Below are positions 13,014-43,193 of a stretch of DNA of 64,000 bases, piece after piece (position 1 is the first letter of the stretch; each line of letters starts with the position of its first letter). The position numbers were made by a program, and so were the translations under genes. The stretch is from Longimicrobiaceae bacterium (GTDB lineage: Bacteria > Gemmatimonadota > Gemmatimonadetes > Longimicrobiales > Longimicrobiaceae), in assembly GCA_035707865.1 (NCBI GenBank), contig DASSTO010000009.1, positions 56,736 through 120,735 of the forward strand, written 5' to 3'. The notes under the pieces are model-generated. The model made no database searches. It was not told where the DNA came from and was given only the letters and a program-made list of their open reading frames with translations.

Positions 13014-13039
13014 CCGGGGTGGAAGGGCAGGGCAGGGCC

Positions 13040-13420: not shown

Positions 13421-13580
13421 CGGGAATCGCGGGGGTGCTCTGGCAAACTGAATCGGGCCGGGGATGTCCCCGGCCCCGAGAATAGCGGGGTGGCACGACG
13501 CGAATCACAGATCGTCCGGCGCGGCGGTAGTGCGGACATTCGCTTGATCTTACCCACGCGCTGGTGCGGGGGCAAGCGCC

Positions 13581-17586: not shown

Positions 17587-17651
17587 TCGTATGCGGGATC
17601 GGGAATGCTCGGCCACCGGGGCGGAGAGCTCACGGCCTCGTGGTTTCACCT

Positions 17652-18758
17652 CTACGCGGATCTCCGGGGTTCTCCGCGTTCCAGCAGCTCCCTCGCGAAG
17701 GAGGCACCCGGGAGTCCGGCGGCGCGGGCGCGCGCGAAGGCGGCGACGACCTGGGGATCGAAGACGGTGCCGGCGCCGCGTTGCAGCTCCGCCGCCGCGA
17801 CCTCCGCGGCGCGGCGCGGGCGGTACGGTCGGTCGGCCACCATCGCATTGAAGCTGTCGACGACCGCGAGGATCCGCGCCTCCAGGGGGATCTCCTCCCC
17901 GTGCAGTCCGTCGGGGTAGCCCTTGCCGTTCCAGCGCTCGTGGTGATGGCGGACGATCGGGGCCGCCGCGCGCAGGCGCTCGCTCCGGTCCAGGATCCGC
18001 GCGCCGGTCTCCGGGTGGCGCTTCACGAGCTCGTACTCGTCGCGCGTCAGCGGCCCAGGCTTGCTCAGGATCCGCTCGGGAACGCCGAGCTTCCCGATGT
18101 CGTGCAGGACTCCGGCGAGCCACAGCCGCTCGAGCTGGTCCGCGTCGACGCCCAGCTCCGCTCCCACCGCCAGCGCCTGGCGCGCCAGGCGCTCCAGGTG
18201 GCCCGCGGCGTAGCCGTCGCGGATCTCGATCGCGCTCGCCACGGTCCACAGCGCGTCCAGGCAGAGCTCGAGGAGCGCGTCTCCGTCGCGTTCCTGCGGC
18301 CGCTCCTCCGCCATCCGCCGGTAGGCCGCGTTCTCCTGCAACAGCCTCCGCCGCTCCAGCGAGCGGGTCACGGCGAAGCGGACCCTCTGCAGGCTGAAGG
18401 GCTTCTCGATGTAGTCGTCCGCGCGCGGACTCGGCGCTTCCATCGCCTGCTCCACCCCGCTGAGCCCCGAGAGGATCACGAATCCGACCGCGGGGTCGCG
18501 CTCCCTCGCCCGGCGCAGCAGCTCCGTGCCGTTGATCCCCGGCATCAGCAGGTCCGAGAGGATCGCGTCCGGAGCGTCGGCCTCCAGCACGCGCAGCGCG
18601 TCCTCCCCGCTCGCCGCGAGCGAGAGCCGGTATGAGTCACCGAGTGCGCGGGAGAGGATGAGCCGGATGCTCTCCTCGTCGTCCACGACCAGGACGTGGG
18701 CGGGTGCCGTGTCGTTCGCGGAAATGGGATCGGTTGGAAGAGGAAGTTTATCCACCAT
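17652..18758 (-). CDS. response regulator with HD-GYP phosphodiesterase domain (RpfG-like)
   Basis: 368 aa from ATG 18758. Receiver motifs VLVVDDEE and AILSDLLMPGING. HD-GYP motifs HDIGKLGV and HHERWNGKGYPDGL. Confidence 0.9.
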   Translation of the reverse strand: MVDKLPLPTDPISANDTAPAHVLVVDDEESIRLILSRALGDSYRLSLAASGEDALRVLEADAPDAILSDLLMPGINGTELLRRARERDPAVGFVILSGLSGVEQAMEAPSPRADDYIEKPFSLQRVRFAVTRSLERRRLLQENAAYRRMAEERPQERDGDALLELCLDALWTVASAIEIRDGYAAGHLERLARQALAVGAELGVDADQLERLWLAGVLHDIGKLGVPERILSKPGPLTRDEYELVKRHPETGARILDRSERLRAAAPIVRHHHERWNGKGYPDGLHGEEIPLEARILAVVDSFNAMVADRPYRPRRAAEVAAAELQRGAGTVFDPQVVAAFARARAAGLPGASFARELLERGEPRRSA

Positions 18759-19138
18759 CGTTCGGAAACGGAGCCGGGAGACGGATGGGGAAGATACGCC
18801 ACCCCGCGCCCATCTCGAAATGGCCTCCGCACAGCTGCGCGCGGAGCGTCGTACCGGTCGCTCACCGGCCGCGCCGCGCGAGGCCCTCCGTCCATATCCG
18901 TGCCAGGGACGCCGCCTCGACCCCCCTCGGGCGCGGGAACCCACGGGAGAGCCTGCGCCCTCTCCGCCTCCGGGCGAATCGGCGCGACGCCGGCCGATCT
19001 CCCCGGCGCCGCGGATTTGCCGCATGCGCGCATCAGGTGGCGTGTGCGCGCCACGCCGCCGCTCAACCCGGGCCGGCCCGGTGCCGAAGCTCTCTACGGA
19101 TGGAGCCGGCGCGGCGGAGAATACGTTTGCGGGGGACG

Positions 19139-20419
19139 ATGAGCGAAGCTCGGGGGGTGCAGCCGACACCAGCGGACGCGGACCGGACACGGGCCCGGCT
19201 CAGCGCCGCCGTGCTCGTCTACTGCGTCGGGGTGATCCTCTTCATCACGCTCGTTCCCTTCCGGTTCGAGGATTCCCCCACCCGCGCCGTCCTCTTCACC
19301 GGGGAGCTGAGGGACGTCGTGGCGAACCTGGCGCTCTTCCTTCCCATCGGCTTCCTGTACCCGCTCTCGCGACCCGGGCCCGCGCGTCGGCGCGCCGTGG
19401 AGGTGGTGCTCCTGTCGTGCGTTCTCAGCATGACGATCGAGACCGCCCAGCTCTTCGAGCACGAGCGCTACTCGTCGGTGCTGGACGTGCTCACCAACAC
19501 CGTCGGGGCGGCCGCGGGCGCCGCGGCCCTGGAGTGGGTTCGTGCCCGTCTGGCGCGCAGCACGATCTTCCCCGGCCGGCTCTCCCTCGAGCTGCCGTTG
19601 ATGGGCCTGCTCTACCTGCTGCTGCCCCTGCTCTGGCTCTCGGCGCTGAGCGCGGGCACCGAGCTGCCCCGGATGCTCCTCCCGGTGCTCGTCTGCTGCG
19701 TCGGCGTGCGGCTCTGGGGAGTGCTCTACGACCATCACTTCGGGCCGATCGCCGGCGTCTCGCCCGGCACCATGCGCTGGATCGTCGCCGCGTGGACCCT
19801 CGCCGGCCTGGCCCCCGCACTGATGGTCTACCCGTGGACGGCGCTGACGCTCCCGCTCCTCGCCGCGGTCGCGATCCGGCCGGCCGAGCGCGCGAGCGTC
19901 TCCGGCGAGCGACGCTTCGAGGCGGTGGCCCTCCGGGCCGCGCTGCCGGCTCTCCTCGCGTATCTCGTCGTGCTGCTCGCGCTCCCGCTCGTCGGCCCGC
20001 GCGGCGCTCCGACCTTTCACTGGGGCTTCCCTACCAGCCACTTCTCCGTGACGCCGCTGCAGCAGCTCCGGTTCCTCCAGGCTTTCGCGGCTGTCGGTGT
20101 CCTCGGGTACGTTCTGGCGGAGGTCCGCGGCAGAAGCGAGCTCCCCTTCCGTCGTGTGGTGGGAGCGCTCGCCCTCGCCGCGTCGCTCTTCGCCCTGCCG
20201 TTCGAGCTCGTGCGGGCTGCGGTGCCCGGGCTCGGCTTCAGCGCCGCCGAGGCCCTGCTGCTGCTCGCCGCCGGACCGTACGGCGGCTGGATCTATCACC
20301 TTCAGCGGGCTCACGTCCGCGCATCGGCTCCGGCAGCGGAGCCGGTGCGGAAACCGCGCGAAGCCGGTCTCGGCGGCGCGCCCGCGGGACTGCCGGTGCT
20401 CGGCGGGGAACTGGTGTAA
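19139..20419 (+). CDS. VanZ-like domain membrane protein
   Basis: 426 aa from ATG 19139. N-terminal VanZ pattern (VPFRF..., NLALFLPIGFL, ETAQLF..R.SS..DVLTN..GA) followed by ~8 further hydrophobic helices. Confidence 0.7.
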   Translation: MSEARGVQPTPADADRTRARLSAAVLVYCVGVILFITLVPFRFEDSPTRAVLFTGELRDVVANLALFLPIGFLYPLSRPGPARRRAVEVVLLSCVLSMTIETAQLFEHERYSSVLDVLTNTVGAAAGAAALEWVRARLARSTIFPGRLSLELPLMGLLYLLLPLLWLSALSAGTELPRMLLPVLVCCVGVRLWGVLYDHHFGPIAGVSPGTMRWIVAAWTLAGLAPALMVYPWTALTLPLLAAVAIRPAERASVSGERRFEAVALRAALPALLAYLVVLLALPLVGPRGAPTFHWGFPTSHFSVTPLQQLRFLQAFAAVGVLGYVLAEVRGRSELPFRRVVGALALAASLFALPFELVRAAVPGLGFSAAEALLLLAAGPYGGWIYHLQRAHVRASAPAAEPVRKPREAGLGGAPAGLPVLGGELV

Positions 20420-20424
20420 GTCTC

Positions 20425-20441
20425 GCGGATTCCGTAAATTA
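20425..20441 (+). promoter_or_regulatory. conserved motif GCGGATTCCGTAAATTA (copy 1)
   Basis: 15/17 identical to 25180-25196. AT-rich island 18 nt upstream of the hybrid kinase ORF. Confidence 0.4.
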
Positions 20442-20458
20442 CTCGCCCGCGCCCTGGT

Positions 20459-22534
20459 GTGCCGGGCCCTTCTCTCGGACCCCTTATCGCCTCCGCGCTC
20501 GTCTCTCTTTCCATGCCCGATCGCAGCCGTTACGTCCGAAAAACTCCCGTACGCCGCTCCGTCGAGCGGGCGTCGTCGCCGAACCCCTCCGGGAGCGAGG
20601 AGCAACTCCGCGCGATCGCCGCGCACGTCCGCGACGCCGCCTGGATCACCAGCCCGGACGGTCGGGAAGTCCTCTACGTCAACCCCGCGGGCGAGGCTCT
20701 GTGGGGCCATTCCGCCGAGGAGCTCCTCGCGCGACCCGGGCTCTGGATGCAGTCCCTCGGTGCGGTCGATCGCGCAGCGGTGAGCGAGGCCTTCCCGCCG
20801 CCCGCGGGTGCGGAGCCCCCCACGCTTCGCTATCGGGTCGATCGGCCGGACGGCTCGCCGCGCTGGGTCGAGCACCGGCTCCTCCCCCTGCGCGCCGCGA
20901 ACGGCCGGGTGCAGCGCGTCCTCAGCATCGCCGAGGACGTCACCGCGCTGCGGAGCGCTCACGAGGCGCTGGTCGAGAGCGAGGAGCGTTTCCGCCTCGC
21001 GGCCCGCGCCACCAACGACGTCGTCTGGGAGCGCGACCTCTGCACCGGCGAGGTCGCGTGGAACGAGGCGGCCGGGGTCGCGCTCGGCCATCCGCAGCGC
21101 GCCGCGGATTTCACCGCCGACTGGTGGACGCGCAACCTGCACCCCGAGGACCGGGAGCGCGTGCTGTCGAGCCTTCGCGCGGCCGTCGAGGGCACGGGAC
21201 AGTTCTGGACCGAGGAGTACCAGTTCCGGCGCGCGGACGGCTCGTACGCCACGGTGCTCGATCGGGGCTTCGTCGCCCGCGCCGAGGACGGCCGGCCCGT
21301 GCGCATGGTCGGAGCCATGGCGAACGTCACGGACTACAAGCGGCTCGAGGAGCAGCTCCACCTCTCGCAGCGCATGGAGGCCGTCGGCCGCCTCGCGGGC
21401 GGCATCGCGCACGACTTCAACAACATCCTGATGGTGATCGAGGGCTCCACCGACCTGCTCCTGGACGGCCTCTCCGAGTCCGACCCGGTCTGCGCCGACC
21501 TGAAGGAGATCCGCAAGGCCGCCGAGCGCGCGACCTCGCTCACCCGGCAGCTCCTCGCCTTCGGGCGCCGTCAGGTGCTCCGCCCCAAGGTGGTGGACCT
21601 GAACGCGAGCGTCGCGGAGATCCAGCGGATGCTGGAGCGGATCCTGGGAGAGGACCTCACGCTCGTCACCGACCTCGCCCCCGACCTGGGCCGCGTCGAG
21701 GTCGACCCGGGGCAGTTCGAGCAGGTCCTGCTCAACCTGGCCGTCAACGCCCGCGACGCCATGCCCAAGGGCGGCGTGCTCACCGTCGAGACCCGCGACG
21801 TGGTGCTGACCGAGAAGGACACGCGTCGCTTCGCCTACCGCGTAGATCCCGGTCCTTACGTACGCGTGCGCGTCTCCGATACCGGCGACGGCATCGGAGA
21901 GGAGACGCTCGCCCACATCTTCGAGCCCTTCTTCACCACCAAGGAGCAGGGGAAGGGCACGGGCCTGGGCCTCAGCACGGTGTACGGGATCGTCAAGCAG
22001 AGCGGCGGTTACATCTGGGCGGAGAGCACGGAAGGGGAGGGCAGCACCTTCGACGTCTACCTGCCTTCACTCGGGTCGGTCCCGCTTCCAGCACCGGCGT
22101 CGAGCAAGCGCGGCGCCCGCGCGCCACTGCGCCAGAGGATCGGGACGATCCTGCTCGTCGAGGACGAGGACGTGGTCCGCTCCATCGCGCGCCGCATCCT
22201 GGTGCGCAGCGGCTACGCCGTCCTGGAGGCGGCGAACGGGCCCGCGGCGCTACGTCTCTGCGAGGAGCGGGGGGGAGAGATCGACCTGCTGATCACGGAC
22301 GTCGTGATGCCGCAGATGAGCGGGCGGGAGCTGGCCGACCACGTCACGGAGCGCTTTCCGGGAGTGCGGGTGCTCTACATGTCGGGCCACATCGACGACC
22401 TCGTGGTCCGCCACGGCGTCCAGCACGCGTCCAACGGCTTCATCCAGAAGCCGTTCCCGCCGGAGGTCCTCCTGCGACGCGTCGACGAGGCACTCCTGAA
22501 GAAGAAACGGCAGCGGCTGGCGGCGAACGGCTAA
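20459..22534 (+). CDS. hybrid sensor histidine kinase (PAS-PAS-HisKA-HATPase-REC)
   Basis: 691 aa (alternative ATG at 20513). H-box HDFNNIL. N/G boxes NLAVNARDAM, DTGDGI, GTGLGLS. C-terminal receiver LLVEDED...DLLITDVVMPQMSG...KPF. Confidence 0.9.
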   Translation: MPGPSLGPLIASALVSLSMPDRSRYVRKTPVRRSVERASSPNPSGSEEQLRAIAAHVRDAAWITSPDGREVLYVNPAGEALWGHSAEELLARPGLWMQSLGAVDRAAVSEAFPPPAGAEPPTLRYRVDRPDGSPRWVEHRLLPLRAANGRVQRVLSIAEDVTALRSAHEALVESEERFRLAARATNDVVWERDLCTGEVAWNEAAGVALGHPQRAADFTADWWTRNLHPEDRERVLSSLRAAVEGTGQFWTEEYQFRRADGSYATVLDRGFVARAEDGRPVRMVGAMANVTDYKRLEEQLHLSQRMEAVGRLAGGIAHDFNNILMVIEGSTDLLLDGLSESDPVCADLKEIRKAAERATSLTRQLLAFGRRQVLRPKVVDLNASVAEIQRMLERILGEDLTLVTDLAPDLGRVEVDPGQFEQVLLNLAVNARDAMPKGGVLTVETRDVVLTEKDTRRFAYRVDPGPYVRVRVSDTGDGIGEETLAHIFEPFFTTKEQGKGTGLGLSTVYGIVKQSGGYIWAESTEGEGSTFDVYLPSLGSVPLPAPASSKRGARAPLRQRIGTILLVEDEDVVRSIARRILVRSGYAVLEAANGPAALRLCEERGGEIDLLITDVVMPQMSGRELADHVTERFPGVRVLYMSGHIDDLVVRHGVQHASNGFIQKPFPPEVLLRRVDEALLKKKRQRLAANG

Positions 22535-22544
22535 CGGCTGCCGC

Positions 22545-23471
22545 TCACCCCCGCGAGCTCTGCTTCCGGGCGTACATCCGCTCGTCGGCTTCGGCGAGCA
22601 GGTCCTGGAGCGCCATCGGCTGGTCGGGGTCGAAGTAGGCCGTGCCCACGCTCAGGGAGAGCGGGTAGGGAGCCGCCGAGGTGGCGCGCTGCTCCTCGAG
22701 GATGGCCTGGAGCCGGTCGGTGAGCAGCTCGGAGCGGTTCTCGTCCGTCTCGATCGCCAGCACCGCGAACTCGTCGCCGCCGAGCCGGCCGATCAGGTCC
22801 GTGCTCCGGAAGCAGGTCCGCAGCAGCGCGGCCGCTTCCTGCAGCGTCGCGTCGCCGGCCTCGTGCCCGAGCTCGTCGTTGATCGTCTTCAGCAGGTCCA
22901 CGTCGGCGTAGATGAGCACCGCGCCGCGGCGATTCCGCAGCGAGAGGTTGAGCTGGTGCTCGGCCATGTGCAGGAAGCCGCGGCGGTTGTACGCGCCGGT
23001 GAGCTCGTCCTCGTAGGCCAGCGTGCGCAGGAGCTCCTCGGCGCGCTTGCGGTGCGTCAGGTCGGTGAGCATGCCGATGACCACCGGCGCCGGGTATCCC
23101 GGCAGGTCGGCAAGGTGCGCGTCGTGTTGGATCCACAGCGTACGGCCGTCCTTGGCGCTGATGCGGTACTCGGAGATCAGCGCTGCCCCCATCGTCGAGA
23201 GCCGCGACTGCTCGTTCAGCACCCGGCCCGCGTCGTCCGGGTGGATCTGGTTGAACCAGTCGTGCGGGTTCTCGATCCACTCTCCTGGCGCGAAGCCGAG
23301 CAGTGATTCGAGCTGCGGGCTCACGTAGAGGATGGGGCCGGGCAGAGGAGACTCCGCCACGTAGGCTACGCCCGGGAGGTGGTCGAGGAGCTGTAACAGC
23401 GCTTCGTGTGGAAGTCGATCGGGCATGCGCGGGGCGGGGAAGGGTGCGCCAGCGTCGACGCGGGCCGGCAA
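22545..23471 (-). CDS. PAS-GGDEF diguanylate cyclase
   Basis: 308 aa (alternative ATG at 23426). PAS segment, then RSTD-LIGRL-GGDEF with intact active and inhibitory sites. Confidence 0.9.
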   Translation of the reverse strand: MPARVDAGAPFPAPRMPDRLPHEALLQLLDHLPGVAYVAESPLPGPILYVSPQLESLLGFAPGEWIENPHDWFNQIHPDDAGRVLNEQSRLSTMGAALISEYRISAKDGRTLWIQHDAHLADLPGYPAPVVIGMLTDLTHRKRAEELLRTLAYEDELTGAYNRRGFLHMAEHQLNLSLRNRRGAVLIYADVDLLKTINDELGHEAGDATLQEAAALLRTCFRSTDLIGRLGGDEFAVLAIETDENRSELLTDRLQAILEEQRATSAAPYPLSLSVGTAYFDPDQPMALQDLLAEADERMYARKQSSRG

Positions 23472-28862: not shown

Positions 28863-29654
28863 TCAGTTGTGCAGATAGCGGACGATGAGCAGGACGGGCG
28901 TGAGGATCGCCAGGCCGTCGCGCACGATCGACCATGCACTCCGGTTCCTGGCCGCGGGCACGATCACGTGGTCACCGGCACGCAGGCTCAACTGGTCGAT
29001 CGTGCGGCCCTGGATGATCGCCTGCTGGAGGGCGTCGCCGCCCCAGATCGTCTGGTTCGCCCGCTCCACCCGGACCTCGTTCAGCCGCGCGTTCGGCGCC
29101 GTCCCGCCGGCGATGTTGAAGAGGTCCGAGAAGACGGCGTCCGTCGGTACCACGAAGTAGCCGCTCTTGCCCACGCTCCCCGTGATCATGATCCGGATCG
29201 AGGAGCGCGCGTGCACCACGGGGTCCCGGATGTAGCGCGCGAGCTGGTCGTGCAGGTAGGACTCCAGCTCCGATCGCAGGACGCCGCGCAGCGAGATGTC
29301 GCCGATGCCGGGCAGCGCCAGCTTGGGCCCGTCCTGCACCACGAACGACCCCGAGAGATCCTTCTCGTCCTGGACCGAGAGCCCGATCAGGTCGCCGATC
29401 TGGAAGTCACCCTCGGTCAGCCGCGCCCGGATCAGCGCGGCCGCGCGCTGCGCCTCCTCGCGCTTCTCGCCGCTGTAGGCCGGGGACGCGGCCAGGCGCT
29501 GATACTCCGTGAGCATCTCCTGAAGGCGGGCACGGGAGAGCTGCGGCTGCTGTGCGTCGCCGACACTCTGCGCGGCGACGCCGCTGGCCGCGCCGAGAAC
29601 CATCACCGCAGCGAGTGCGGACCAGACCATCCGACCACGGGCTCGAAGCTTCAT
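28863..29654 (-). CDS. polysaccharide export protein (Wza-like: Poly_export + SLBB)
   Basis: 263 aa from ATG 29654 with a signal peptide. GDFQIGDLIGLSV...LPGIGDISLRGV (Poly_export pattern) followed by ITGSVGKSGYFVVP (SLBB). Confidence 0.8.
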   Translation of the reverse strand: MKLRARGRMVWSALAAVMVLGAASGVAAQSVGDAQQPQLSRARLQEMLTEYQRLAASPAYSGEKREEAQRAAALIRARLTEGDFQIGDLIGLSVQDEKDLSGSFVVQDGPKLALPGIGDISLRGVLRSELESYLHDQLARYIRDPVVHARSSIRIMITGSVGKSGYFVVPTDAVFSDLFNIAGGTAPNARLNEVRVERANQTIWGGDALQQAIIQGRTIDQLSLRAGDHVIVPAARNRSAWSIVRDGLAILTPVLLIVRYLHN

Positions 29655-29971
29655 AGCGCTGGACTGCGAAAGAGGGCGGGAAAGGGAGCGGGAGATCCCG
29701 TTCCGGGCCCGAGACCGGGCCCGGACCGACACCCGCGACGGAGTATGCTCGGCGGCGCCGAACGGTTCCGGTGGCCCGCGGAATCAAGATCAAGGCCGTT
29801 GCGGGCGCGCCCCGTAAGATACACGCCGCGCGGCTTTACGCGCCTGCAGGGTGAGGCCGGGTGCGCGCGAGTGTTGGATCGTCTCCACCCTGACTGTGGC
29901 GCGACAACCACACCGGGCCCGGCGCCGGGGTCGGGCGGAGGCGGCTACGTGCCCGTAAGTGCCCACGCCGC

Positions 29972-31033
29972 ATGAGCAGCCACGCGGGGACGGGCCACCG
30001 GCGCGGAGCGCCCCGCGATCTGCACAGGATTTGCAAGAGAGCCCGCGAGCCCTTCTTCACCATCCTGAAATCGATGGGAATCAATCCTCCTCCGACCGAG
30101 GGGATACGAGCCGGTGCCCCCGTATCCCACCGTCCACCGCGCCTGCTGCTCATCTCGGACGAACCGTGGTGGGTGCGCTCCCTGCAGAGTGTCCTCGGTA
30201 GCGGTTACACCACCGAGGCGAGCTCCGCGCGCAAAGGATCGGCACGCCTGCGAGCCGACGCCCCGGACGCGATCCTGGTGCATACGCATCTGAAGGGCAC
30301 CACGGGCACCGATCTCATCCGCACCCTGCGCAGTACGCACGGCCTCTCCCCCGCCATTCCCTTCCTGCTGATCTCCGATGCACCGCTCGCCCGGGACGAG
30401 CGCGTCGCCGCCCTGCAGGCCGGTGCCTGGGATTGCCTCTGCGCGCCGCTCGACGCCCAGGAGCTTCTGAGCAAGCTCGGCACCTTCCTCGCCGCGAAGC
30501 AGAGCCTGGGGTCGTCGGCGCCGCTCCTCGACGACGAGACGGGCGTCTACAGCGCGGAGGGGATCATGCGGTGGGCGCAGGAGCTGCTCGGGACCGCCCA
30601 CCGGTACGACCGGGCGCTCGGCTGCGCCATCTTCGCCCTCGTCCACCCGCCGCACCCCGACCACGCGCGCGGGGTGGAGAGCGGCCCCCCGTCGCGTGCG
30701 GCCGTGCTCGCCCGCGTGCTCACCTCGCACGGGCGGTCCTCCGACGTCGTCGGCAGGATCGGCGGCTACTTCGTCGTCCTCGCGCCGGACACCGACGCCG
30801 CCGGCACGCAGGGCATGGCGGCGCGCATGCTGCGAGCGGGTGAGCGCGAGCTCGCCCGCCAACGGGTCCGGGCGCGCAACCCGCTGCTGGTCGGCTGCTT
30901 CACCTTCCCCGGCTCTTCCTCGCCCCCGGTCGAACCCGCGGACCTCATCGATCGCGCGCTGCTCGCGCTGCAGCGCACGCCCGCGGTCGTACCGGGAGAG
31001 ATATCCCTCCTCGACCCGCACCTGCTCCACTAG
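29972..31033 (+). CDS. pseudo-receiver + degenerate GGDEF domain protein (candidate c-di-GMP receptor)
   Basis: 353 aa (alternative ATG at 30074). Receiver-like fold, but His104 replaces the phospho-acceptor Asp (AILVHTHL) and the conserved Lys is missing (DCLCAPL). The GGDEF-like domain reads RSSD-VVGRI-GGYFV: the active site is degenerate and RxxD keeps canonical spacing. Confidence 0.75.
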   Translation: MSSHAGTGHRRGAPRDLHRICKRAREPFFTILKSMGINPPPTEGIRAGAPVSHRPPRLLLISDEPWWVRSLQSVLGSGYTTEASSARKGSARLRADAPDAILVHTHLKGTTGTDLIRTLRSTHGLSPAIPFLLISDAPLARDERVAALQAGAWDCLCAPLDAQELLSKLGTFLAAKQSLGSSAPLLDDETGVYSAEGIMRWAQELLGTAHRYDRALGCAIFALVHPPHPDHARGVESGPPSRAAVLARVLTSHGRSSDVVGRIGGYFVVLAPDTDAAGTQGMAARMLRAGERELARQRVRARNPLLVGCFTFPGSSSPPVEPADLIDRALLALQRTPAVVPGEISLLDPHLLH

Positions 31034-31128: not shown

Positions 31129-33528
31129 TCAGCCCCCGCCCAGCATCATCGGCTGACCGTCGCCGCTCCCCTCCTCCACCGCCTCGTACCCGCGCATGTA
31201 GGTGTATGCGCGGTACGGCGTCGTCTCGGTCGGCGCGCCGTTCAGCACGGCGCCGACGACCCGGATCGGTAGCCGGTCCGCGATCGCGAGCTTCATCGAT
31301 GCCAGCGAGCGGTCGGTCGCCCCGGCACGCAGCACCAGGAGCAGGTTCCGCGTCTGGATGCCGAGCGCGAAGGCGTCCGCTCCCGCACCGAGCGGCGGGC
31401 TGTCCACGAGGATGACGTCGAAGCGCGACTTCAGATCCTCCAGCAGGTCCGCCATCTGCTTCGAGCCGACGAGCTCCGGGCCGTGCTGCATCCGGCTGCC
31501 CGAGGCGATCAGGCAGACGTTGCGGAAGCCCGTTCCCTGGACGACGTCTCCCTGCGTGACCTGCCCCGAGAGGTAGTCGGTGAGCCCCGGCTTCCGCTCG
31601 CCTCCCAGAACCCGGTTCAATGCCCCGCGGCGGACGTCGGCGTCGATCACCAGCGTACGGTGGCCCTGGTCCGCGAAGGCGAGCGCCAGGTTCGACGTCA
31701 CGAACGACTTGCCGTCGCCGCTGCCGGGGCTGGAGATGGTGAGCATCATCGGGCCCGAAGCGCCCTGGGCATGGAGGAGGTTCAGCCGGATCTCCCGGAA
31801 TGCCTCCGTGGCATAGAGCGTCGCCTCGCGCGCCACGTCGCTGCTCGGTGCCTGCAGCACGCTCGGTACCACGCCCAGGATCGAGAGCCCCAGCCCGCTC
31901 GTCACCTCGTCCGGATAGCGCACGCGCGGGTCCAGCCGGTCCAGCACCGTGACACCCACGCCGGACAGGCCCAGACCTCCCAGCAGACCGAGGAGGATGA
32001 AGACGGGGCGCGGATCGCTCAGCGGCTTCGAAGGCACCACCGCCGGGTCGAGGACCCTCACGTCCGGGATGGTGCTCGCGGCCGCGAGCTGGGCGTCCTG
32101 CAGCCGGCCCTTGAGGTCGGCGTGCAGCTGCTTCGCCAGGCCGACCTGCCGCTCCAGGCGCGCCTCCTCGATCATCCGCGGCGGGATCTGCTGAAGCTCG
32201 TTCGACGCCGAGTTGATCTGCGCGTCGATCGCCTGCTCCCGGTCGAGCAACTGTGCGCGCAGCTCGCCCGCCAGGTGCGGAATCGTGGTCCCCTCCATCG
32301 TGGCGATCTCCTGCGAGAGCTTCTGCGCCTGAGGGTACTCCGGCGTGTAGCGATGGAGAAGCTCGCGCAGCTCCCCGCGCTTCGAGATCCGGGCCTCGAT
32401 CGCCGCCTTCAGCGCCGGGGCGTTCTGTGACACCGAGGGGATCATGAGCAGCTCGTCCAGCGAGAGCCCGGAGTTCTTCGCCTCCGCGAGGACCCGGTCG
32501 ATCGACCGGATGTCGCTGTCGATCTGCTCGCGCTCGATCTTCATGTCGAAGAAGCGCTGCATCACCGGGCTCTGCGTGCTCTCCAGCCCCGGCGCGACCG
32601 GAGTGCTCTGGTCGGTCGGCAGGGTGATGGTGTGGATGCGGAAGTCCTGCAGCGCCAGCTCCGAGTCACGCAGTTGCTTCCCCGTGGACTCGACCTGGTG
32701 CTCGAGCACCCCCGTGAGCTCGTCCAGCTTGGCTCGCTTCAGTTGCGCGGCCACGTTGACGAAGTGCTTCGTGACCGAGTTCATCGTCCGACTCGCCTGC
32801 ACGGGGCTGGTACCGGTCAGGCTCAGGCTCAGGAAGTGGCCGCTCGCGTCCATCACCGTGCGAAGCTCCTGCGCCAGCCGGACCGACACGTCGCGCGGGT
32901 TCACGATCTCGAAGTCGATACTCCGGCCCGGCGAGAGAACGTCCGCGCTCGGTACCCAGTCGAAGCCCAGCTTCTCGCCGATGGGCTCTCCGACCCGGCC
33001 GCTCTGGATCGGAGTGCCGTCCGCGCTGAGCTGGAAGGTGCCTCCACTCTTGGCGACCTCCAGCCGATACTTTCCGGTGCGGAAACGATTCTCGAGCGCG
33101 AAGTGGGCGAAGGCTCGCCGGTTGGCATCCTCGGTGGTGATATAGAGGTGCTGTTCGACGACGACGCTGTCCAGGACCACGAAGGACTTGAGCAGGTTCA
33201 CCCACGCTGCGGACTGCAGCAGCTCCTGCTGCTGGATCGGTCCCTGTTGCTGGGATCCCTTGTCGCTGGTCTCCACCCACAGCGTGGACTGGACCTGGTA
33301 CTTGGGACTCACGAAGTGCGAGCCGGCGTAGCCGAGCATCGCGCCCACCAGGCCGGTTCCGAGAATCCACCACTTGCGGCGTAGCAGAGCCGTGATGAAG
33401 CGCTGCAGGCCGGGCCCGTGCTTGGGTTCGGAGGGTGCCGGCTGCGCTGCCCACGGCGGCACCGACGACCCATCGAGCTGCGCGGGCACCGAAGCGGGTT
33501 CAAACCTCAGAGGGGATTGATTCGACAT
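31129..33528 (-). CDS. polysaccharide co-polymerase / tyrosine autokinase (Wzc/GumC-like, PCP-2a)
   Basis: 799 aa. N-terminal Wzz-like domain with a TM helix, long coiled-coil periplasmic region, and a C-terminal kinase (SSPGSGDGKSFVTSNLA, FDVILVDSPPL). Tyr-rich tail YRAYTYMRGY. Confidence 0.85.
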   Translation of the reverse strand: MSNQSPLRFEPASVPAQLDGSSVPPWAAQPAPSEPKHGPGLQRFITALLRRKWWILGTGLVGAMLGYAGSHFVSPKYQVQSTLWVETSDKGSQQQGPIQQQELLQSAAWVNLLKSFVVLDSVVVEQHLYITTEDANRRAFAHFALENRFRTGKYRLEVAKSGGTFQLSADGTPIQSGRVGEPIGEKLGFDWVPSADVLSPGRSIDFEIVNPRDVSVRLAQELRTVMDASGHFLSLSLTGTSPVQASRTMNSVTKHFVNVAAQLKRAKLDELTGVLEHQVESTGKQLRDSELALQDFRIHTITLPTDQSTPVAPGLESTQSPVMQRFFDMKIEREQIDSDIRSIDRVLAEAKNSGLSLDELLMIPSVSQNAPALKAAIEARISKRGELRELLHRYTPEYPQAQKLSQEIATMEGTTIPHLAGELRAQLLDREQAIDAQINSASNELQQIPPRMIEEARLERQVGLAKQLHADLKGRLQDAQLAAASTIPDVRVLDPAVVPSKPLSDPRPVFILLGLLGGLGLSGVGVTVLDRLDPRVRYPDEVTSGLGLSILGVVPSVLQAPSSDVAREATLYATEAFREIRLNLLHAQGASGPMMLTISSPGSGDGKSFVTSNLALAFADQGHRTLVIDADVRRGALNRVLGGERKPGLTDYLSGQVTQGDVVQGTGFRNVCLIASGSRMQHGPELVGSKQMADLLEDLKSRFDVILVDSPPLGAGADAFALGIQTRNLLLVLRAGATDRSLASMKLAIADRLPIRVVGAVLNGAPTETTPYRAYTYMRGYEAVEEGSGDGQPMMLGGG

Positions 33529-33615: not shown

Positions 33616-33630
33616 GCAAGTCGAAGGCCA
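33616..33630 (-). promoter_or_regulatory. sigma-54 (-24/-12) promoter candidate
   Basis: The minus strand reads TGGCCT-TCGAC-TTGC with exact GG-N10-GC spacing. The -12 GC lies ~88 nt upstream of the Wzc-like ATG (33528). Confidence 0.45.
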
Positions 33631-34814: not shown

Positions 34815-36278
34815 GTGCGCCCCGTGGACGAGTCCTTCCGTAAGGTCCTGATCGTCGAGGACGAGGCCAGCCTCCGCGAGAGCTGCGTCAGCGTGCTCCG
34901 ACACGAGGGCTACGACGTCAGCGCCGCCGGCCGGGGCGACGAGGCACGCGACCTCCTGCAGCGCGCGCCCTTCGACATCGTCCTCCTGGATCTGCACATG
35001 CCGCAGGTCTCCGGCATGGAGCTGCTCCGGATCTGCTTGCAGACGCACCCGGAGACGCTGGTCATCCTGATGACGGGGCAGCCGGACGTGGAGTCCAGCA
35101 TCGAAGCGCTGCGCGCCGGTGCCTGGGACTACCTGCCGAAGCCGTTCACCGCTGCGCACCTCCAGGTGCTCCTCGGCCGCGCCCGGCACACGCTCATGCT
35201 CTCGCAGCGCGCGCAGGACGAGAGCACCCGTCTCAACGAGCAGCACGGTCACAGCAGCTCGTCGACGCTGCTCGGGTGCTCCCCGGCGTTCGTGAACATG
35301 ATCCGCCTCGCGGAGAAGGTGGCGCGCACCGATGCATCCGTCTTCCTCACCGGGGAGAGCGGGAGCGGGAAGGAGGTCATCGCGCAGTTCATCCACCATC
35401 ACAGCCGCCGCAAGTCGCGCCCCATGGTCGCCGTCAATTGCGCCGCCCTCCCCGAGACGCTCCTCGAATCGGAGATGTTCGGCCACGTGAAGGGCGCCTT
35501 CACCGGCGCCGTGCGCGACAAGCCCGGCCTCCTGGAGACCGCGGACGACAGTACCTTCTTCCTGGACGAGCTGACGGAGATGGGCCAGTCCGTCCAGGCG
35601 AAGCTGCTCCGGGTCATCCAGGACGGAGTGGTGCGGCGCGTCGGGAGCGAGGTGACGGATGCCACGGTGAACGTCCGCTTCATCGCGGCCACCAACCGCG
35701 ACCCTCGCGAGGCGGTCGACGAGGGCATCCTGCGCAAGGACCTCTACTATCGCCTCTCCGTCGTTCCCATTCGAGTGCCGGCGCTCCGGGACCGCATAGA
35801 GGACATCCCCGTGCTCGCCAAGCACTTCCTCGCCGTCTACTGGAAGCGGCACCGGGACCGGACGGCCGCGCTGCCCACCTTCTCGGCCGCCGCGCTGCGC
35901 GGGCTGCAGGAGCGCCCGTGGCCCGGGAACGTGCGCGAGCTCCAGAACGTCATGGAGCACGCCGTGGTCCTCCTCGAGCCCGGCTCGGAGATCGGGCCGC
36001 AGGACATTCCCCACCTCGAGGGCGCGAACGGGGACGTGGGCGCACGCGGCGGCCTGCTCAACTGGAACGCGCTCGCGGCCGGCCTCGACGGCGAGTACCA
36101 CGAGGTGCGCGAGCGGGTGATCGCCGAGTTCGAGCTCCAGTATCTCACCCGATTGATCGATCAGGCGGGAGCCAACATGTCGCGTGCGGCGAAGATGGCG
36201 GGGGTGGACCGGACCACGCTCTATCGCCTGATGGACAAGCACGGTCTGCAGCGAGACACGATCATCAAGGCGCACTGA
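34815..36278 (+). CDS. sigma-54-dependent response regulator (NtrC family; PEP-CTERM-system PrsR-like)
   Basis: 487 aa, GTG start. REC (ILIVEDEA-type VLIVEDEA, VLLDLHMPQVSG), AAA+ (GESGSGKEV, ESEMFGH, GAFTGA, FLDEL) and a C-terminal Fis-type HTH (RAAKMAGVDRTTLYRLM). Confidence 0.9.
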   Translation: MRPVDESFRKVLIVEDEASLRESCVSVLRHEGYDVSAAGRGDEARDLLQRAPFDIVLLDLHMPQVSGMELLRICLQTHPETLVILMTGQPDVESSIEALRAGAWDYLPKPFTAAHLQVLLGRARHTLMLSQRAQDESTRLNEQHGHSSSSTLLGCSPAFVNMIRLAEKVARTDASVFLTGESGSGKEVIAQFIHHHSRRKSRPMVAVNCAALPETLLESEMFGHVKGAFTGAVRDKPGLLETADDSTFFLDELTEMGQSVQAKLLRVIQDGVVRRVGSEVTDATVNVRFIAATNRDPREAVDEGILRKDLYYRLSVVPIRVPALRDRIEDIPVLAKHFLAVYWKRHRDRTAALPTFSAAALRGLQERPWPGNVRELQNVMEHAVVLLEPGSEIGPQDIPHLEGANGDVGARGGLLNWNALAAGLDGEYHEVRERVIAEFELQYLTRLIDQAGANMSRAAKMAGVDRTTLYRLMDKHGLQRDTIIKAH

Positions 36279-36321: not shown

Positions 36322-37389
36322 GTGCCGGATCCCTCGCATCCTGTCTCGCCCCCGGCGCTGAGAGCCGCCGAGCGGGATCTCCTCCAGGAGATCGCCGATC
36401 GCGCTACGCTCTGGGGCGACCCGGACGAGTTGCGACGACGGCTGCGCGCGACGGTCGAGGCGATCGAGGAGGGCGGGCGTTCTCCCTGTCGCCCCGACTG
36501 CTCCGCCCTGGAGGTCGCCAGCTTCCACGGGATCCTGGAGCAGTTGCGGGCGCGGACGGTGGAGATCTGGTCGTGCTCCGATCCCGCGCCCGATCCGTCG
36601 GAGATGATCGCCCTGCTCCGCTCCATGGAGCGGATGCAGCAGAACCTCCAACCTCGAGACGCGCACGACTCGCTCTCCTCCCTCCTGGCGCTCGTGCGCG
36701 GGCCGGAGATGCTCTTCGAGTTCGCGCACGACCTCCGGTCCCCCCTCACCAGTATCCTCTTCCTCGTCGAGACGCTACGGCGCGGAGGCAGCGGTGAGCT
36801 GAATTCGCTCCAGCACCATCAGCTCGGCATCGTCTACAGCGCGGCCCTCAGCCTCATCTCGATGGCCGGCGACGTCCTCGACCTCTCACGCGGTGGCGAG
36901 CACCTCGCCCAGAAGGACCCCGCCGCGTTCTCCATCGCCTCGGTCTTCGAGTCCGTTCTCGACCTCGTCCGGCCGATGATGGATCAACGGGCGGTGGAGC
37001 TGCGCTCCGAATCGCCCGAGCACGACTCCCGAATGGGCTATCCGGTGGCGCTCGGTCGGGTGCTCCTCAACCTCACCACCAACGCCCTCAAATCCACCGA
37101 CCGCGGGTTCGTCGAGCTGGCCGCCCGCGACACCGTGGGCGACGTCGTGGAGTTCTCCGTGCGCGACTCGGGGCGCGGGATCGATCCCGAGGTGATCCCG
37201 ACGCTCTTCGAGCCCTTCCAGTCGCGCGGCGGCATTCAGCGCATCAGCTTCTCCAGCGCCGGCCTCGGCCTCTGGATCTGCCGCAGGCTCATCCGCGCGA
37301 TGGGCGGCGAACTCGCCTTCGAGACCGCGCCCGAGCAGGGAACCCGCTTCCACTTCGAGCTGCCCCTCCCCTCCGCTCCGCTGGTCTGA
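36322..37389 (+). CDS. soluble sensor histidine kinase
   Basis: 355 aa, GTG start, no TM helix. H-box FAHDLRSPLTSI. N/G boxes NLTTNALKST, DSGRGI, GLGLWICR. Confidence 0.85.
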   Translation: MPDPSHPVSPPALRAAERDLLQEIADRATLWGDPDELRRRLRATVEAIEEGGRSPCRPDCSALEVASFHGILEQLRARTVEIWSCSDPAPDPSEMIALLRSMERMQQNLQPRDAHDSLSSLLALVRGPEMLFEFAHDLRSPLTSILFLVETLRRGGSGELNSLQHHQLGIVYSAALSLISMAGDVLDLSRGGEHLAQKDPAAFSIASVFESVLDLVRPMMDQRAVELRSESPEHDSRMGYPVALGRVLLNLTTNALKSTDRGFVELAARDTVGDVVEFSVRDSGRGIDPEVIPTLFEPFQSRGGIQRISFSSAGLGLWICRRLIRAMGGELAFETAPEQGTRFHFELPLPSAPLV

Positions 37390-37611: not shown

Positions 37612-38379
37612 ATGAATCCTGCAGCAGACGTGGTGGTGCGCCAACGAGAGGAAGGCGAACTGGTCGGTTACGAGGTCGCCGCACTCACGCTGAATCCCAT
37701 GCCCGCCCGCCCGCCGCGATGGGTGGACTGGACGGCCCAGGGCGTTCTCGACCTCCGCCGCGCCATCAACGTGGTCGTCGCTGCGGTAGCGCTGATCCTC
37801 CTCTCTCCGCTCCTGCTCCTGATCGCCGTCCTGGTGAAGCTTAGCTCGCCGGGCCCCGTCATCTACCGCCAGACCCGCGTCGGGATCGACCGCCGCAGGG
37901 GAGAGAACCCGTACTGGCAGCTGCGGAGGCGCGTGGACTACGGTGGGCGTCTCTTCACGATCTACAAGTTCCGGACGATGCGCCCGCAGGCGGGCCCCAC
38001 GCACGAGGTGTGGGCGCGGCCGGACGACGATCGGGTGACGGCGGTGGGCCGCGTTTTGCGGAAGTACCGCCTCGACGAGCTCCCGCAGCTCGTGAACGTG
38101 CTGAAGGGTGACATGAACATCGTCGGGCCGCGCCCGGAGCAGCCCAGGATCTTCATGGACCTGCGCGAGCAGATCGGGGGCTACGCCGACCGGCAGCGCG
38201 TGCTGCCGGGAATCACGGGCTGGGCTCAGATCAACCAGAGCTACGACACCTCGATCGACGACGTGCGTCGGAAGGTGCGTTACGACCTGGAGTACATCCA
38301 TCGGCAGTCCACCCTGCAGGACCTCCAGATCCTGATGCGGACCGTGCCGGTAATGCTGTTCAAGAAAGGAGCTTGGTGA
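37612..38379 (+). CDS. undecaprenyl-phosphate sugar-phosphate transferase (bacterial sugar transferase family, priming enzyme)
   Basis: 255 aa. One TM helix, then SSPGPVIYRQTRVG, YKFRTM, DELPQLVNVLKGDMNIVGPRP. Preceded by an AT-rich 170-nt spacer. Confidence 0.9.
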   Translation: MNPAADVVVRQREEGELVGYEVAALTLNPMPARPPRWVDWTAQGVLDLRRAINVVVAAVALILLSPLLLLIAVLVKLSSPGPVIYRQTRVGIDRRRGENPYWQLRRRVDYGGRLFTIYKFRTMRPQAGPTHEVWARPDDDRVTAVGRVLRKYRLDELPQLVNVLKGDMNIVGPRPEQPRIFMDLREQIGGYADRQRVLPGITGWAQINQSYDTSIDDVRRKVRYDLEYIHRQSTLQDLQILMRTVPVMLFKKGAW

Positions 38380-39266
38380 GCACAGTCGCAGTCGCCACAC
38401 CGGTCGAGCGCGAGCGGGCCGCCGCGGCGGCGAGCCGCGGAAGGGCGGTGCTCCCGTGGGTAGCCACGGGAGCCGCCTTTCTGGTGCTTTTCGCAGGTCC
38501 CATGGCGGATCTGGCGAAGCAGTGGTGGACGGACCCGAACGCCGGGCACGGCCTCCTGCTCGCCCCGATCGCCCTCTACCTCGCGTGGCGCACCGGCGTG
38601 AGGCCGGATGCGAAGGGCCAGCCGGTGCTGGGGCTGTGTCTGCTCGTGGTCTCGGTGCTCCTGCGCTACGTCGGAGCGCTCGCGGCCGAGCTCTTCACCA
38701 TGCGCACGTCGCTGGTGGGCGCCATCGTCGCGCTCATCGTCTTCGCGTGGGGCGCGCGCCAGCTCGTGCGCTGGTGGCTCCCGCTGACGCTCGTCGTGCT
38801 CTCGGTCCCGCTGCCGACGGTGGTGCTGAACTCGGCGGCCTTCCCGCTGCAGCTCGAGGCGTCGAAGATGGGAGCCGCGCTGCTCGCGTGGCGACAGATC
38901 CCGGTGCTGCTCGATGGGAACGTGATCCGGCTGCCGGGGCACACGCTCTTCGTCACCGAGGCGTGCAGCGGCCTGCGGTCGCTGGCCGCGCTCGTCGCCC
39001 TGGGCGTGCTCATCGCCGGCCTCTGGCTGAAGAAGCCGCCGGTGCGCCTGCTGCTGATCGCCGCGGCCATCCCGGTGGCGATCCTGCTCAACGGGATCCG
39101 GGTCTTTCTCACGGGCTTCCTGGTCTTCTTCGTCGACCCGAAGCTGGGCGAGGGCTTCATGCACCTGACCGAGGGCTGGATCATCTTCGTCTTCGCCTTC
39201 GCCATCCTGGGCGGCCTCGCCTGGGTGCTGGTGCGCCTGGAGCGGCTGTGGGGGAGGGCGGCATGA
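38373..39266 (+). CDS. exosortase (EpsH/Xrt family)
   Basis: 297 aa (TTG 38373, or GTG 38376 overlapping the upstream TGA). Polytopic membrane protein with the catalytic triad context TEACSGLRSL, LLNGIRVFLTG, HLTEGW. Confidence 0.9.
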   Translation: MVSTVAVATPVERERAAAAASRGRAVLPWVATGAAFLVLFAGPMADLAKQWWTDPNAGHGLLLAPIALYLAWRTGVRPDAKGQPVLGLCLLVVSVLLRYVGALAAELFTMRTSLVGAIVALIVFAWGARQLVRWWLPLTLVVLSVPLPTVVLNSAAFPLQLEASKMGAALLAWRQIPVLLDGNVIRLPGHTLFVTEACSGLRSLAALVALGVLIAGLWLKKPPVRLLLIAAAIPVAILLNGIRVFLTGFLVFFVDPKLGEGFMHLTEGWIIFVFAFAILGGLAWVLVRLERLWGRAA

Positions 39267-41981: not shown

Positions 41982-42080
41982 GTTGCTGCTCAGAGCAAAC
42001 CCACCGAAAGGCGGGGACGCAGAGTCAAGGGGCTACAGCGGAGGGTGCTTCTCCGCCACGCTCGCCTGGCCGCCAGCGAC
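41982..42080 (+). ncRNA. c-di-GMP-I (GEMM-I)-like riboswitch aptamer, copy 1
   Basis: GUUGCUG-CUCAGAGCAAACC-CACC GAAA GGCGG-GGACGCAGAGUCAAGGGGCUAC-AGCGGAG(GGUGCUU)CUCCGC-CACGCUCGCCUGGCCGC-CAGCGAC. Matches the Vc2-type core, with a GAAA hairpin and a 7-bp closing helix. See findings. Confidence 0.8.
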
Positions 42081-42227: not shown

Positions 42228-43193
42228 ATGAAGCCTGGGCAGCAGTGGAAAAGGTGGGCCGCAATCCTGACGCTCGGAGTCGTTGCCGGGGCATGCAGCG
42301 ACCAGTCCCCGACCGCAATTCAGACCCCGCTCTCGACGACCGAGGTGTCGGCTTCGACCTCGTCGCTCTCGGTCGCGAGGGTGATCGTCTATCCGTTCTC
42401 CTACACGCTCAAGCTGGGCCAGTACAAGCAGCTGATCGCGGTGCCGAAGGATGCGTCGGGGAATACCCTGAGCCTGGTCGGGCGGAGCGTCTCGTGGAAG
42501 AGCTCGAATCCGGCCGTCGCAACCGTGTACAAGGGCAACGTGAGAGCCAGGGGCGCCGGCACCGTCACGATCACGGCGACGGTGGACGGAGTCAGGGGGA
42601 CGACGAAGATCACCGTGAAGGCGCCGATCAGCGTGGCCTCGGTCACGCTCACGCCCTCCAGCGGGAGCGTCCAGGTGGGCCAGTATCTCCAGCTCCATGC
42701 GACGCCGAAGGACGCCAGCGGAAATCCCGTCAGCGGCCAGACGGTCACCTGGTCCAGCTCGAACCCCGCGATCGCGAAGGTCTACTCGAACGGTCTGGTC
42801 CAGGCCGTGAGCGCGGGCTCGGTGACGATCTCGGCCACCGCGGGCGGAAAGACCGGTCACGCCGCCATCACGGTGACCACGGCGCCGGTCGTGTCGGCGC
42901 CGTCGTCCTCGACCCCTTCCACCTCTGACGTCGCGTCGGTTGTGGTCTACCCGACGATCTACAGCCTCACGGTCGGCCAGTACAAGCAGATGATCGCGGT
43001 GCCGCGGGACGCCTCGGGGCACACCATGAGCCTGGTCGGCCGCACCGTCGTGTGGAGCAGCTCGAACCCGGCCGTGGCGACCGTCAGCGCGTCGGGCCTG
43101 GTGGTCGCCAAGAGCGTGGGCGTGGTCACGATCAAGGCGACGGTGGACGGAACCGTGGGGACGGCGAAGATCACCTCGGCGCTGCCGTACTGA
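42228..43193 (+). CDS. lipoprotein with three Big_2 Ig-like domains
   Basis: 321 aa. AAGGAG lies 6 nt upstream of ATG 42228. Lipobox VVAGAC. Three repeats of (Y/L).(L/V)..GQY.Q(L/M).A.P.DASGN.....V.W.SSNPA(V/I)A.V...G.V.A...G.VTI.AT..G. Confidence 0.85.
   Translation: MKPGQQWKRWAAILTLGVVAGACSDQSPTAIQTPLSTTEVSASTSSLSVARVIVYPFSYTLKLGQYKQLIAVPKDASGNTLSLVGRSVSWKSSNPAVATVYKGNVRARGAGTVTITATVDGVRGTTKITVKAPISVASVTLTPSSGSVQVGQYLQLHATPKDASGNPVSGQTVTWSSSNPAIAKVYSNGLVQAVSAGSVTISATAGGKTGHAAITVTTAPVVSAPSSSTPSTSDVASVVVYPTIYSLTVGQYKQMIAVPRDASGHTMSLVGRTVVWSSSNPAVATVSASGLVVAKSVGVVTIKATVDGTVGTAKITSALPY

Follow-up and report, generated by a model that had tools for sequence, protein, structure and literature searches.

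By sequence and fold, the closest described relatives of the protein analyzed here are DgcR of Leptospira biflexa, WspR of Pseudomonas and PleD of Caulobacter, all of which consist of a receiver domain, a stalk helix and a GGDEF domain that carries an RxxD motif five residues before the GGDEF motif and a third arginine. The protein is encoded at positions 29972 to 31033 (+ strand) of a 64,000-nucleotide stretch of contig DASSTO010000009.1 (hereafter the window) from Longimicrobiaceae bacterium, an uncultured member of the Gemmatimonadota whose sole record is a metagenome-assembled genome (assembly GCA_035707865.1), and shares each of these elements. DgcR, WspR and PleD are active enzymes that are activated by phosphorylation, whereas the protein described here keeps only the site that binds their product, cyclic dimeric guanosine monophosphate (c-di-GMP). 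As suggested by the sequence comparisons reported below, its gene, hereafter the sensor gene, most likely encodes the protein by which a locus for polysaccharide (slime) export in Gemmatimonadota of soils senses c-di-GMP.

Degenerate-GGDEF receptors that sense c-di-GMP at the inhibitory site include PopA, PelD and BcsE. PopA of Caulobacter is an effector with a receiver-receiver-dead GGDEF layout, in which the inhibitory site serves to sense c-di-GMP and protein-protein contacts provide the output; PopA has two receivers, serves in cell-cycle proteolysis, is not known to be linked to polysaccharide genes and is likened to the present protein by description. In PelD of the Pseudomonas Pel system, a GAF domain is combined with a dead GGDEF domain, and c-di-GMP binding requires the RxxD residues R367 and D370 and the downstream R402, the last being "absolutely required" (PMC8461298); the equivalents here are R255, D258 and R285. 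PelD differs in being membrane-anchored, in having a GAF domain instead of a receiver and in being a subunit of a synthase complex. BcsE of Escherichia coli cellulose secretion contains a dead receiver-GGDEF tandem, which binds c-di-GMP at RxxD and the MinD-like ATPase BcsQ by another surface (PMC7439463). The likeness to BcsE covers the two-domain layout, the loss of both ancestral activities, the retention of the inhibitory site and the location in a polysaccharide secretion locus, and the kinase domain of Wzc is of the same ATPase class as the MinD-like partner of BcsE. BcsE, however, carries one more domain at its N-terminus and works in a synthase-dependent system, whereas the family described here is found with Wza/Wzc and a sigma-54 two-component pair. 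A 2021 review of the post-translational control of exopolysaccharides by c-di-GMP deals with cellulose, alginate, Pel and poly-N-acetylglucosamine and does not mention Wzy (PMC8461298).

The profile and structure matches indicate that the family descends from receiver-GGDEF cyclases of the WspR/DgcR/PleD type, and that by its predicted logic it belongs among the degenerate-GGDEF inhibitory-site receptors (PelD, PopA, BcsE). By sequence it is not a member of the PelD or BcsE family, and no match to BcsE (GIL) or PelD was found in Pfam (E ≤ 0.1) or in a PDB search with the family profile (E ≤ 10).

Results and Discussion

Domain architecture of the predicted sensor protein

Residues are numbered throughout from the ATG at 29972. 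The features of the protein, all on the + strand, are as follows.

29972-31033, +: longest open reading frame (ORF) of the pseudo-receiver/dead-GGDEF protein, 353 aa
30140-30481, +: predicted pseudo-receiver domain, residues 57-170 (Pfam, PleD alignment, AlphaFold2, Foldseek)
30281-30283, +: His104 at the phospho-acceptor position (PleD D53), within AILVHTHL at 30269-30292 (PleD alignment)
30443-30445, +: Ala158 at the position of the conserved Lys, within DCLCAPL at 30431-30451 (PleD alignment)
30455-30511, +: long helix, residues 162-180 (AlphaFold2 helix 128-146 in P0001 numbering; Foldseek)
30524-30979, +: GGDEF domain, predicted to be catalytically dead, residues ~185-336
30734-30745, +: RSSD, the RxxD motif of the inhibitory site (R255, D258; PleD R359/D362; PelD R367/D370)
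30761-30772, +: GGYF, remnant of GG[D/E]EF (PleD alignment)
30824-30826, +: Arg285, third inhibitory-site residue (PleD R390, PelD R402)

A start at Met35 (nt 30074), which gives a protein of 319 aa (P0001), is likelier than the ATG at 29972, because it is the start chosen by the gene caller and because the N-termini of relatives reach at most ~20 residues upstream of the first strand. The third-position GC content of the ORF is 0.88, as in real genes here, in a window of ~70% GC. Residues 59-169 matched Response_reg (Pfam PF00072) with 38.9 bits against a cut-off of 30.2, whereas the GGDEF model (PF00990) reached 15.6 bits (E = 0.014), below its cut-off of 23.8, and the PleD equivalog model NF007135 gave 36.3 bits against a cut-off of 474. 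PleD was the top match in a PDB search with HMMER and could be aligned residue by residue. The profile of the C-terminal domain of the family alone matched solved GGDEF domains (3ign, DgcR) at E = 2e-16.

An AlphaFold2 model built from 120 relatives had a mean predicted local distance difference test score (pLDDT) of 81.4, with values of 90-96 near the RxxD loop and below 50 at residues 226-238, where cyclases bind metal and guanine. With the full chain, the best Foldseek matches were WspR (3bre), PleD and DgcR at a probability of 1.0; the receiver half matched isolated receiver domains (TM score 0.88-0.90, root-mean-square deviation 1.5-2 Å) and the C-terminal half matched isolated GGDEF domains, again at a probability of 1.0. 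Helix 162-180 extends receiver helix 5 as a stalk between both domains, as in WspR and DgcR. At the level of the family, the predicted GGDEF fold is a solid assignment. A preliminary description of the window, made from the letters and their translations, had read a receiver topology in the N-terminal half and a degenerate GGDEF domain in the C-terminal half; the Response_reg score and the Foldseek receiver matches bear out the former, and the PleD alignment, the family profile and the Foldseek probability the latter. The reading frame and all residues quoted in that description were found at their coordinates.

Conservation of the inhibitory site and decay of the catalytic sites

The family was collected by exhaustive phmmer searching and clustered at 50% identity, and 150 cluster representatives were aligned with MAFFT. 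More than 150 full-length representatives were recovered at E < 1e-27 with ~30-45% identity to the query, and the named sources of family members are all Gemmatimonadota. Exactly four columns of the alignment were invariant, namely G151, R255, D258 and R285. Three of these four are the inhibitory-site residues of PleD. No other feature of the whole protein is as well conserved as this site; S257 of RSSD was also kept in 133 of the 150. When fifty further orthologues were translated from genome loci, R255, D258 and R285 were again invariant, together with R211 and W153 (51/51 sequences each). Judged by this conservation, the inhibitory site is under strong selection.

The segment RSSDVVGRIGGYF at 30734-30772 reads RSSD, five residues and then the degenerate GGDEF motif from G264; its coordinates and the exact five-residue distance between RSSD and GGYF, both given in the preliminary description, were confirmed. 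In the HMMER alignment, G264-G265 correspond to PleD G368-G369, a one-residue gap falls at E370, Y266 corresponds to E371 and R262 to R366. The spacing from D258 to R285 is 27 residues, or 28 when the one-residue deletion is counted, and is 28 in PleD.

The stretch of active cyclases that contains DxD, FK, ND and GD, with the metal-binding Asp and the guanine-binding Asn/Asp, aligned to ALVHPPHPDHARGVESGPP, a variable and gapped loop. This substrate loop (residues 224-241) is poorly conserved and modeled with low confidence by AlphaFold2; its conservation was 0.6 bits, the lowest of the protein, versus 2.9 bits for the inhibitory-site loop, which is among the highest. The motif of the family is G-x-x-E-F, in which the second and third residues of the GGDEF motif show almost no preference, and the G-GYF form is unique to the query among the 150 representatives. 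The cyclase domain is predicted to be unable to bind metal or GTP. The earlier reading of a degenerate GGDEF domain agrees with this, since the motif, the metal site and the guanine site have all decayed.

The receiver half is likewise predicted to be unable to accept a phosphoryl group in the usual way, because His104 occupies the acceptor position and the conserved Lys is missing; the acidic pair, by alignment to PleD, is S62-D63. Across the 150 relatives the acceptor column contained Asp in 75, His in 13, Ala in 13 and Ser in 12, and Asp was found in 38 of the 51 genome-derived orthologues. None of the tabulated relatives has the receiver Lys, the column reading L/F/P/A/Q/H, and in no representative of the 150 was the complete set of five catalytic receiver residues present. 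The preliminary description had excluded usual phosphorylation from H104 and A158 alike, and the column of the missing Lys extends this reading to the tabulated relatives. The best-conserved receiver segments in the family alignment are helix 1 and the beta5-alpha5 loop, by which receivers dock on kinases.

His at the acceptor position was shared by five of the six nearest cluster representatives. The nearest relatives with this residue, P0013 to P0017, read AVLVH, AVLLH, AVLIH, AVIVH and AAIIH, while most of the family has Asp.

Taken as a whole, the protein is almost certainly a catalytically dead pseudo-response regulator, and it probably binds c-di-GMP at the inhibitory site. The presence of RxxD alone is weak evidence for such binding, because seven of nine intact cyclases in the same genome carry RxxD; the argument for a receptor is that the inhibitory site is wholly retained over ~200 divergent sequences beside a decayed active site. 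The candidate c-di-GMP effector of the preliminary description thus gains the invariance of R255, D258 and R285 in 150/150 and 51/51 relatives and is retained as a probable one. The three c-di-GMP-I riboswitches and the neighboring cyclase/phosphodiesterase genes, listed below, speak for this reading too.

Conservation of the five-gene module

The sensor gene lies in the following arrangement within the window.

28863-29732, -: Wza-like gene for polysaccharide export across the outer membrane, with Poly_export and SLBB domains; divergent from the sensor gene
31129-33528, -: Wzc-like gene (chain-length/tyrosine autokinase with Wzz, GNVR and P-loop kinase domains and a Tyr cluster at the C-terminus); convergent with the sensor gene
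34815-36278, +: NtrC-type sigma-54 activator (receiver + AAA+ + helix-turn-helix; domain models), receiver intact
36322-37389, +: histidine kinase, 355 aa (HisKA + HATPase_c; domain models and direct sequence reading)
37612-38379, +: priming sugar transferase (domain models)
38373-39266, +: exosortase (domain models)

This is the gene order that had been described, with the Wza-like gene divergent and the Wzc-like gene convergent. No transmembrane segment and no recognized sensor domain were found in the histidine kinase by Pfam scan and sequence reading. Downstream of the exosortase, genes for PEP-CTERM-system glycosyltransferases, amidotransferases and an O-antigen-ligase-like protein follow, and the module is flanked by PEP-CTERM proteins.

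Synteny was analyzed in 52 distinct orthologue-bearing loci from related genomes, exosortase-baited loci and metagenome contigs. The Wza-like gene was divergent and within 2 kb upstream of the sensor gene in 40 of 47 loci, and the Wzc-like gene was convergent and immediately downstream in 37 of 43. The activator was found on the strand of the sensor gene within 5 kb in 33 of 36 loci, and the kinase on that strand in 19 of 22. The Wza-like gene, the sensor gene, the Wzc-like gene, the sigma-54 activator and the sensor-less histidine kinase form a five-gene module that is conserved in Gemmatimonadales polysaccharide loci. Contigs L070 and L075, from uncultured Gemmatimonas sp., are among the carriers of the module. 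The genes of the block are inherited together, and in many loci the orientation of the entire block is reversed with respect to the transferase and exosortase genes.

In five rearranged loci (L002, L026, L031, L038 and L097), the sensor gene is directly followed by the activator on the same strand, and the kinase follows the activator, again on that strand, wherever the contig extends far enough. The Wza/Wzc genes in these loci are further off or absent from the available sequence, and the other neighbors are unrelated housekeeping genes. Conversely, none of the 52 loci was found to keep Wza/Wzc beside the sensor gene without the activator/kinase pair.

Most module loci also hold an exosortase. 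A strict companionship of sensor and exosortase was considered and rejected, since several genomes and ~10 loci have an exosortase and no sensor, and some loci have a sensor and no nearby exosortase. The sensor gene travels with the Wza/Wzc/activator/kinase block.

The PrsK/PrsR pair of PEP-CTERM/exosortase loci likewise consists of a histidine kinase and a sigma-54 activator whose genes belong to an exosortase polysaccharide locus. PrsR (TIGR02915) was the second-best NCBIfam match of the activator, with 368 bits, below the cut-off of 502.6, and PrsK was absent among the 25 best listed NCBIfam matches of the kinase, which differs in being short and soluble. To our knowledge, the PrsK/PrsR system as described has no dead-GGDEF third component.

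Some loci contain further related genes. In L038, a second, diverged sensor copy lies at 12677-13519 (-) (G058:C13), 2 kb from the first with a GlmS-like gene between them; it is 28% identical over half of its length and has no Pfam hit. Second-tier paralogues were found in several other genomes at E values of 1e-13 to 1e-18. L001 is the sole metagenome contig with an orthologue (P0002, 38% identity) outside the Wza/Wzc/activator context; a small PilZ-domain protein is encoded there at 1880-2254 (+), 500 bp downstream of the orthologue and past a DUF4180 gene.

A sigma-54-type element ahead of wzc

A candidate promoter element was found on the wzc strand.

33616-33630, -: TGGCCTTCGACTTGC, sigma-54-type -24/-12 element, 87 nt upstream of wzc

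In 28 of 32 distinct Gemmatimonadales loci, the 300 nt ahead of wzc contained the pattern GG-N8-TTGC in the orientation of the gene, where shuffled controls predict 3.1; the pattern occurred on the opposite strand in 8 of the 32. The best-placed copy lies 35-123 nt, mostly 50-120 nt, from the wzc start codon, and the element sequences vary (for example GGTATC...TTGC and GGCCTT...TTGC). Single-locus best-score scans were weakly above shuffles, and the signal emerged in the position-specific comparison across loci only. A search of the whole window for TGGCAC-N5-TTGC with up to two mismatches gave 33 matches versus 45 expected and is uninformative alone. The sigma-54 gene (rpoN) is present in the genome. 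Because the conserved element, the divergent activator gene and sigma-54 occur together, the activator is the obvious candidate driver of wzc transcription, which implies that this NtrC-type protein, encoded divergently from wzc, has wzc as a conserved putative target.

Ahead of the sensor gene, CTGCACAGGATTTGC at 30020-30034, upstream of the start at 30074, was considered as a sigma-54 promoter and rejected, as it lacks the GG of the -24 box. GG-N8-TTGC was mildly enriched there, in 14 of 51 loci versus 4.4 expected, with 11 on the other strand, and no claim is made of a sigma-54 promoter for the sensor gene itself.

Proposed mechanism and alternative explanations

The favored reading of the whole, held with moderate confidence, is a stand-alone c-di-GMP receptor that derives from a WspR/DgcR/PleD-type receiver-GGDEF cyclase and signals via the kinase/activator pair. 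c-di-GMP, probably as an intercalated dimer, would occupy the inhibitory site and alter the dimerization or domain packing of the protein. The pseudo-receiver would then dock on the neighboring soluble histidine kinase, or on the receiver of the activator, and adjust phosphotransfer, and the activator, once phosphorylated, would switch on the sigma-54 promoter upstream of wzc, probably along with further promoters of the locus. c-di-GMP would thereby set the amount of the Wzc co-polymerase/kinase and, with it, the polysaccharide output. An output that passes from the sensor-less kinase to the sigma-54 activator and on to the wzc promoter is proposed because the gene trio stays together, the kinase has no input domain and the receiver shows the conservation pattern described above; we rate this route as plausible, at slightly less than an even chance. 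In its most specific form, a previously undescribed three-component circuit in which the c-di-GMP-loaded pseudo-receiver docks via helix 1 on the sensor-less kinase and gates phosphotransfer to the activator of the wzc promoter, the proposal is a tentative one.

Several findings speak against this proposal. Half of the family keeps the acceptor Asp, so some members may still be phosphorylated. The one-residue deletion and the Tyr in the hairpin right after the inhibitory site, found in the query only, might distort the site, and the mere presence of RxxD could be inherited, as it occurs in the intact cyclases noted above. In PleD, WspR and PelD, c-di-GMP is held in part by an additional Arg that a second domain contributes; in the present protein, the invariant R211 is the sole candidate for such a residue. 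The geometry between the domains is uncertain, with a predicted TM score (pTM) of 0.57 for the AlphaFold2 model, and synteny is equally compatible with physical contact to the kinase/activator pair and to Wzc.

That last point bears on the nearest alternative, in which the c-di-GMP receptor would act post-translationally on the P-loop kinase domain of Wzc, or on the Wza/Wzc complex, by influencing oligomerization or tyrosine autophosphorylation. In ~85% of loci the sensor gene is flanked by wza and wzc, with the end of wzc often under 300 bp away, the kinase domain of Wzc matches MinD/ParA-type models, and BcsE is a precedent for a dead GGDEF domain that binds c-di-GMP and, by a separate surface, a SIMIBI-class ATPase (PMC7439463). 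Yet the five independent rearranged loci retain the activator/kinase neighbors and lose the Wza/Wzc adjacency, the sensor gene is always convergent and never co-transcribed with wzc, the conserved sigma-54-type promoter of wzc suggests transcriptional control, and the family profile matches neither BcsE nor PelD. Direct action on Wzc, which BcsE makes plausible, is rated as less likely, and it is compatible with the kinase/activator route, as the two are not mutually exclusive. The preliminary description had expected a post-translational c-di-GMP switch on Wza/Wzc export at this locus; such a switch could exist, but it is not the best-supported route, given that the rearranged loci keep the activator/kinase pair and that wzc has its own predicted promoter.

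Other explanations dispense with c-di-GMP binding or with the loss of catalysis. A pseudo-enzyme scaffold, in which the Arg/Asp/Arg cluster serves another nucleotide or a protein contact, would fit the hairpin deletion that adjoins the inhibitory site in the query, and (p)ppGpp appears as a second nucleotide on a GGDEF protein in the titles of the PleD structures 9g85/9g86. We consider it improbable, as the invariant residues are the known c-di-GMP contacts of PleD and PelD at equal spacing, in a locus otherwise rich in c-di-GMP parts. The linkage to a kinase/regulator pair and the retention of Asp in 75/150 relatives and 38/51 orthologues, often with a second acidic residue and Thr/Ser, could also mean that the family consists of ordinary accessory response regulators, acting as phosphate sinks or kinase competitors, of which the query is merely a decayed member and for which c-di-GMP is irrelevant. 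However, the Lys is found in no tabulated member and the full five-residue catalytic set in no representative, and a most conserved feature that is the inhibitory site would be left unexplained; this explanation is very improbable. The public annotation of relatives as diguanylate cyclase-like or PleD family would point to a working diguanylate cyclase whose active site is unusual. This was rejected as next to impossible: the motif, shortened by a deletion, reads GG-YF, a variable loop takes the place of the metal-binding Asp and of the guanine-binding Asn/Asp, and the PleD equivalog score is far below its cut-off (36.3 bits versus 474).

Implications of the proposed stand-alone receptor

Full-text literature searches retrieved no description of the family, nor of any c-di-GMP receptor paired with a Wzc-type kinase. 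The family would be a new version of a well-known receptor type and is conserved throughout a phylum that has received little study. Although soils are rich in Gemmatimonadota, hardly any genetic work has been done on them; aggregation and tolerance of desiccation probably depend in part on their exosortase/PEP-CTERM polysaccharide loci. The family would supply the signal input of these loci. We know of few direct c-di-GMP receptors for Wza/Wzc-type pathways. If the three-component circuit proposed above is real, the protein would provide a direct c-di-GMP route into such a pathway and the missing kinase input of Gemmatimonadota exosortase loci. If the output runs through the kinase, c-di-GMP would gain a new entry into two-component signaling, by a separate docking protein and not by a domain of the kinase.

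The protein would, moreover, be a clear case in nature of a cyclase that has been pared down to its product-binding site and joined to a receiver that is no longer phosphorylatable. Relatives are publicly annotated as "response regulator", "diguanylate cyclase (GGDEF)-like protein" and "PleD family response regulator". The labels "diguanylate cyclase" and "PleD family response regulator" would then be misleading and would inflate cyclase counts in Gemmatimonadota.

c-di-GMP-related and other features of the window

Further c-di-GMP-related features were found on both sides of the module, among them a signaling cluster at 14584-23471.

14584-18249, -: GAF-HisKA-PAS-GGDEF-EAL protein, c-di-GMP signaling cluster
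18704-20419, +: VanZ-like protein, same cluster
20459-22534, +: PAS-PAS hybrid histidine kinase with receiver, same cluster
22545-23471, -: PAS-GGDEF cyclase with GGDEF and RxxD (RSTD) intact, nearby c-di-GMP source
41984-42077, +: c-di-GMP-I riboswitch
54720-54813 and 55011-55099, +: two more c-di-GMP-I riboswitches, ~200 nt apart, upstream of one gene

The PAS-GGDEF and GGDEF-EAL genes lie 6-15 kb upstream of the sensor gene, and 13 GGDEF-domain matches were found in the genome. A hybrid kinase and a PAS-GGDEF cyclase occur near the module again in at least one relative (L024). The three riboswitches scored 51-56 bits against a cut-off of 35. That at 41984-42077 precedes a lipoprotein-like ORF with repeated Ig-like segments (ATG 42228 to 43193), and the pair lies upstream of a large ORF, secreted or lipoprotein-like, whose end is at 57120 and whose true start must fall after 55099, not at 54925.

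Three asparagine-synthase-like amidotransferase paralogues are encoded in the one polysaccharide locus, at 44730-46691, 49196-51091 and 52749-54623 (+). They are XrtA/PEP-CTERM-like with 477-652 bits, all under the cut-off of 817 bits, and an acyl-CoA-ligase-like gene (51384-52745) is located between the second and the third.

Elsewhere in the same genome, contig C98 encodes a second, unrelated degenerate GGDEF domain at 17869-18285 (+). It reads RESD-VLARV-GYGTF, with RxxD again five residues before the dead motif, and may be another inhibitory-site receptor.

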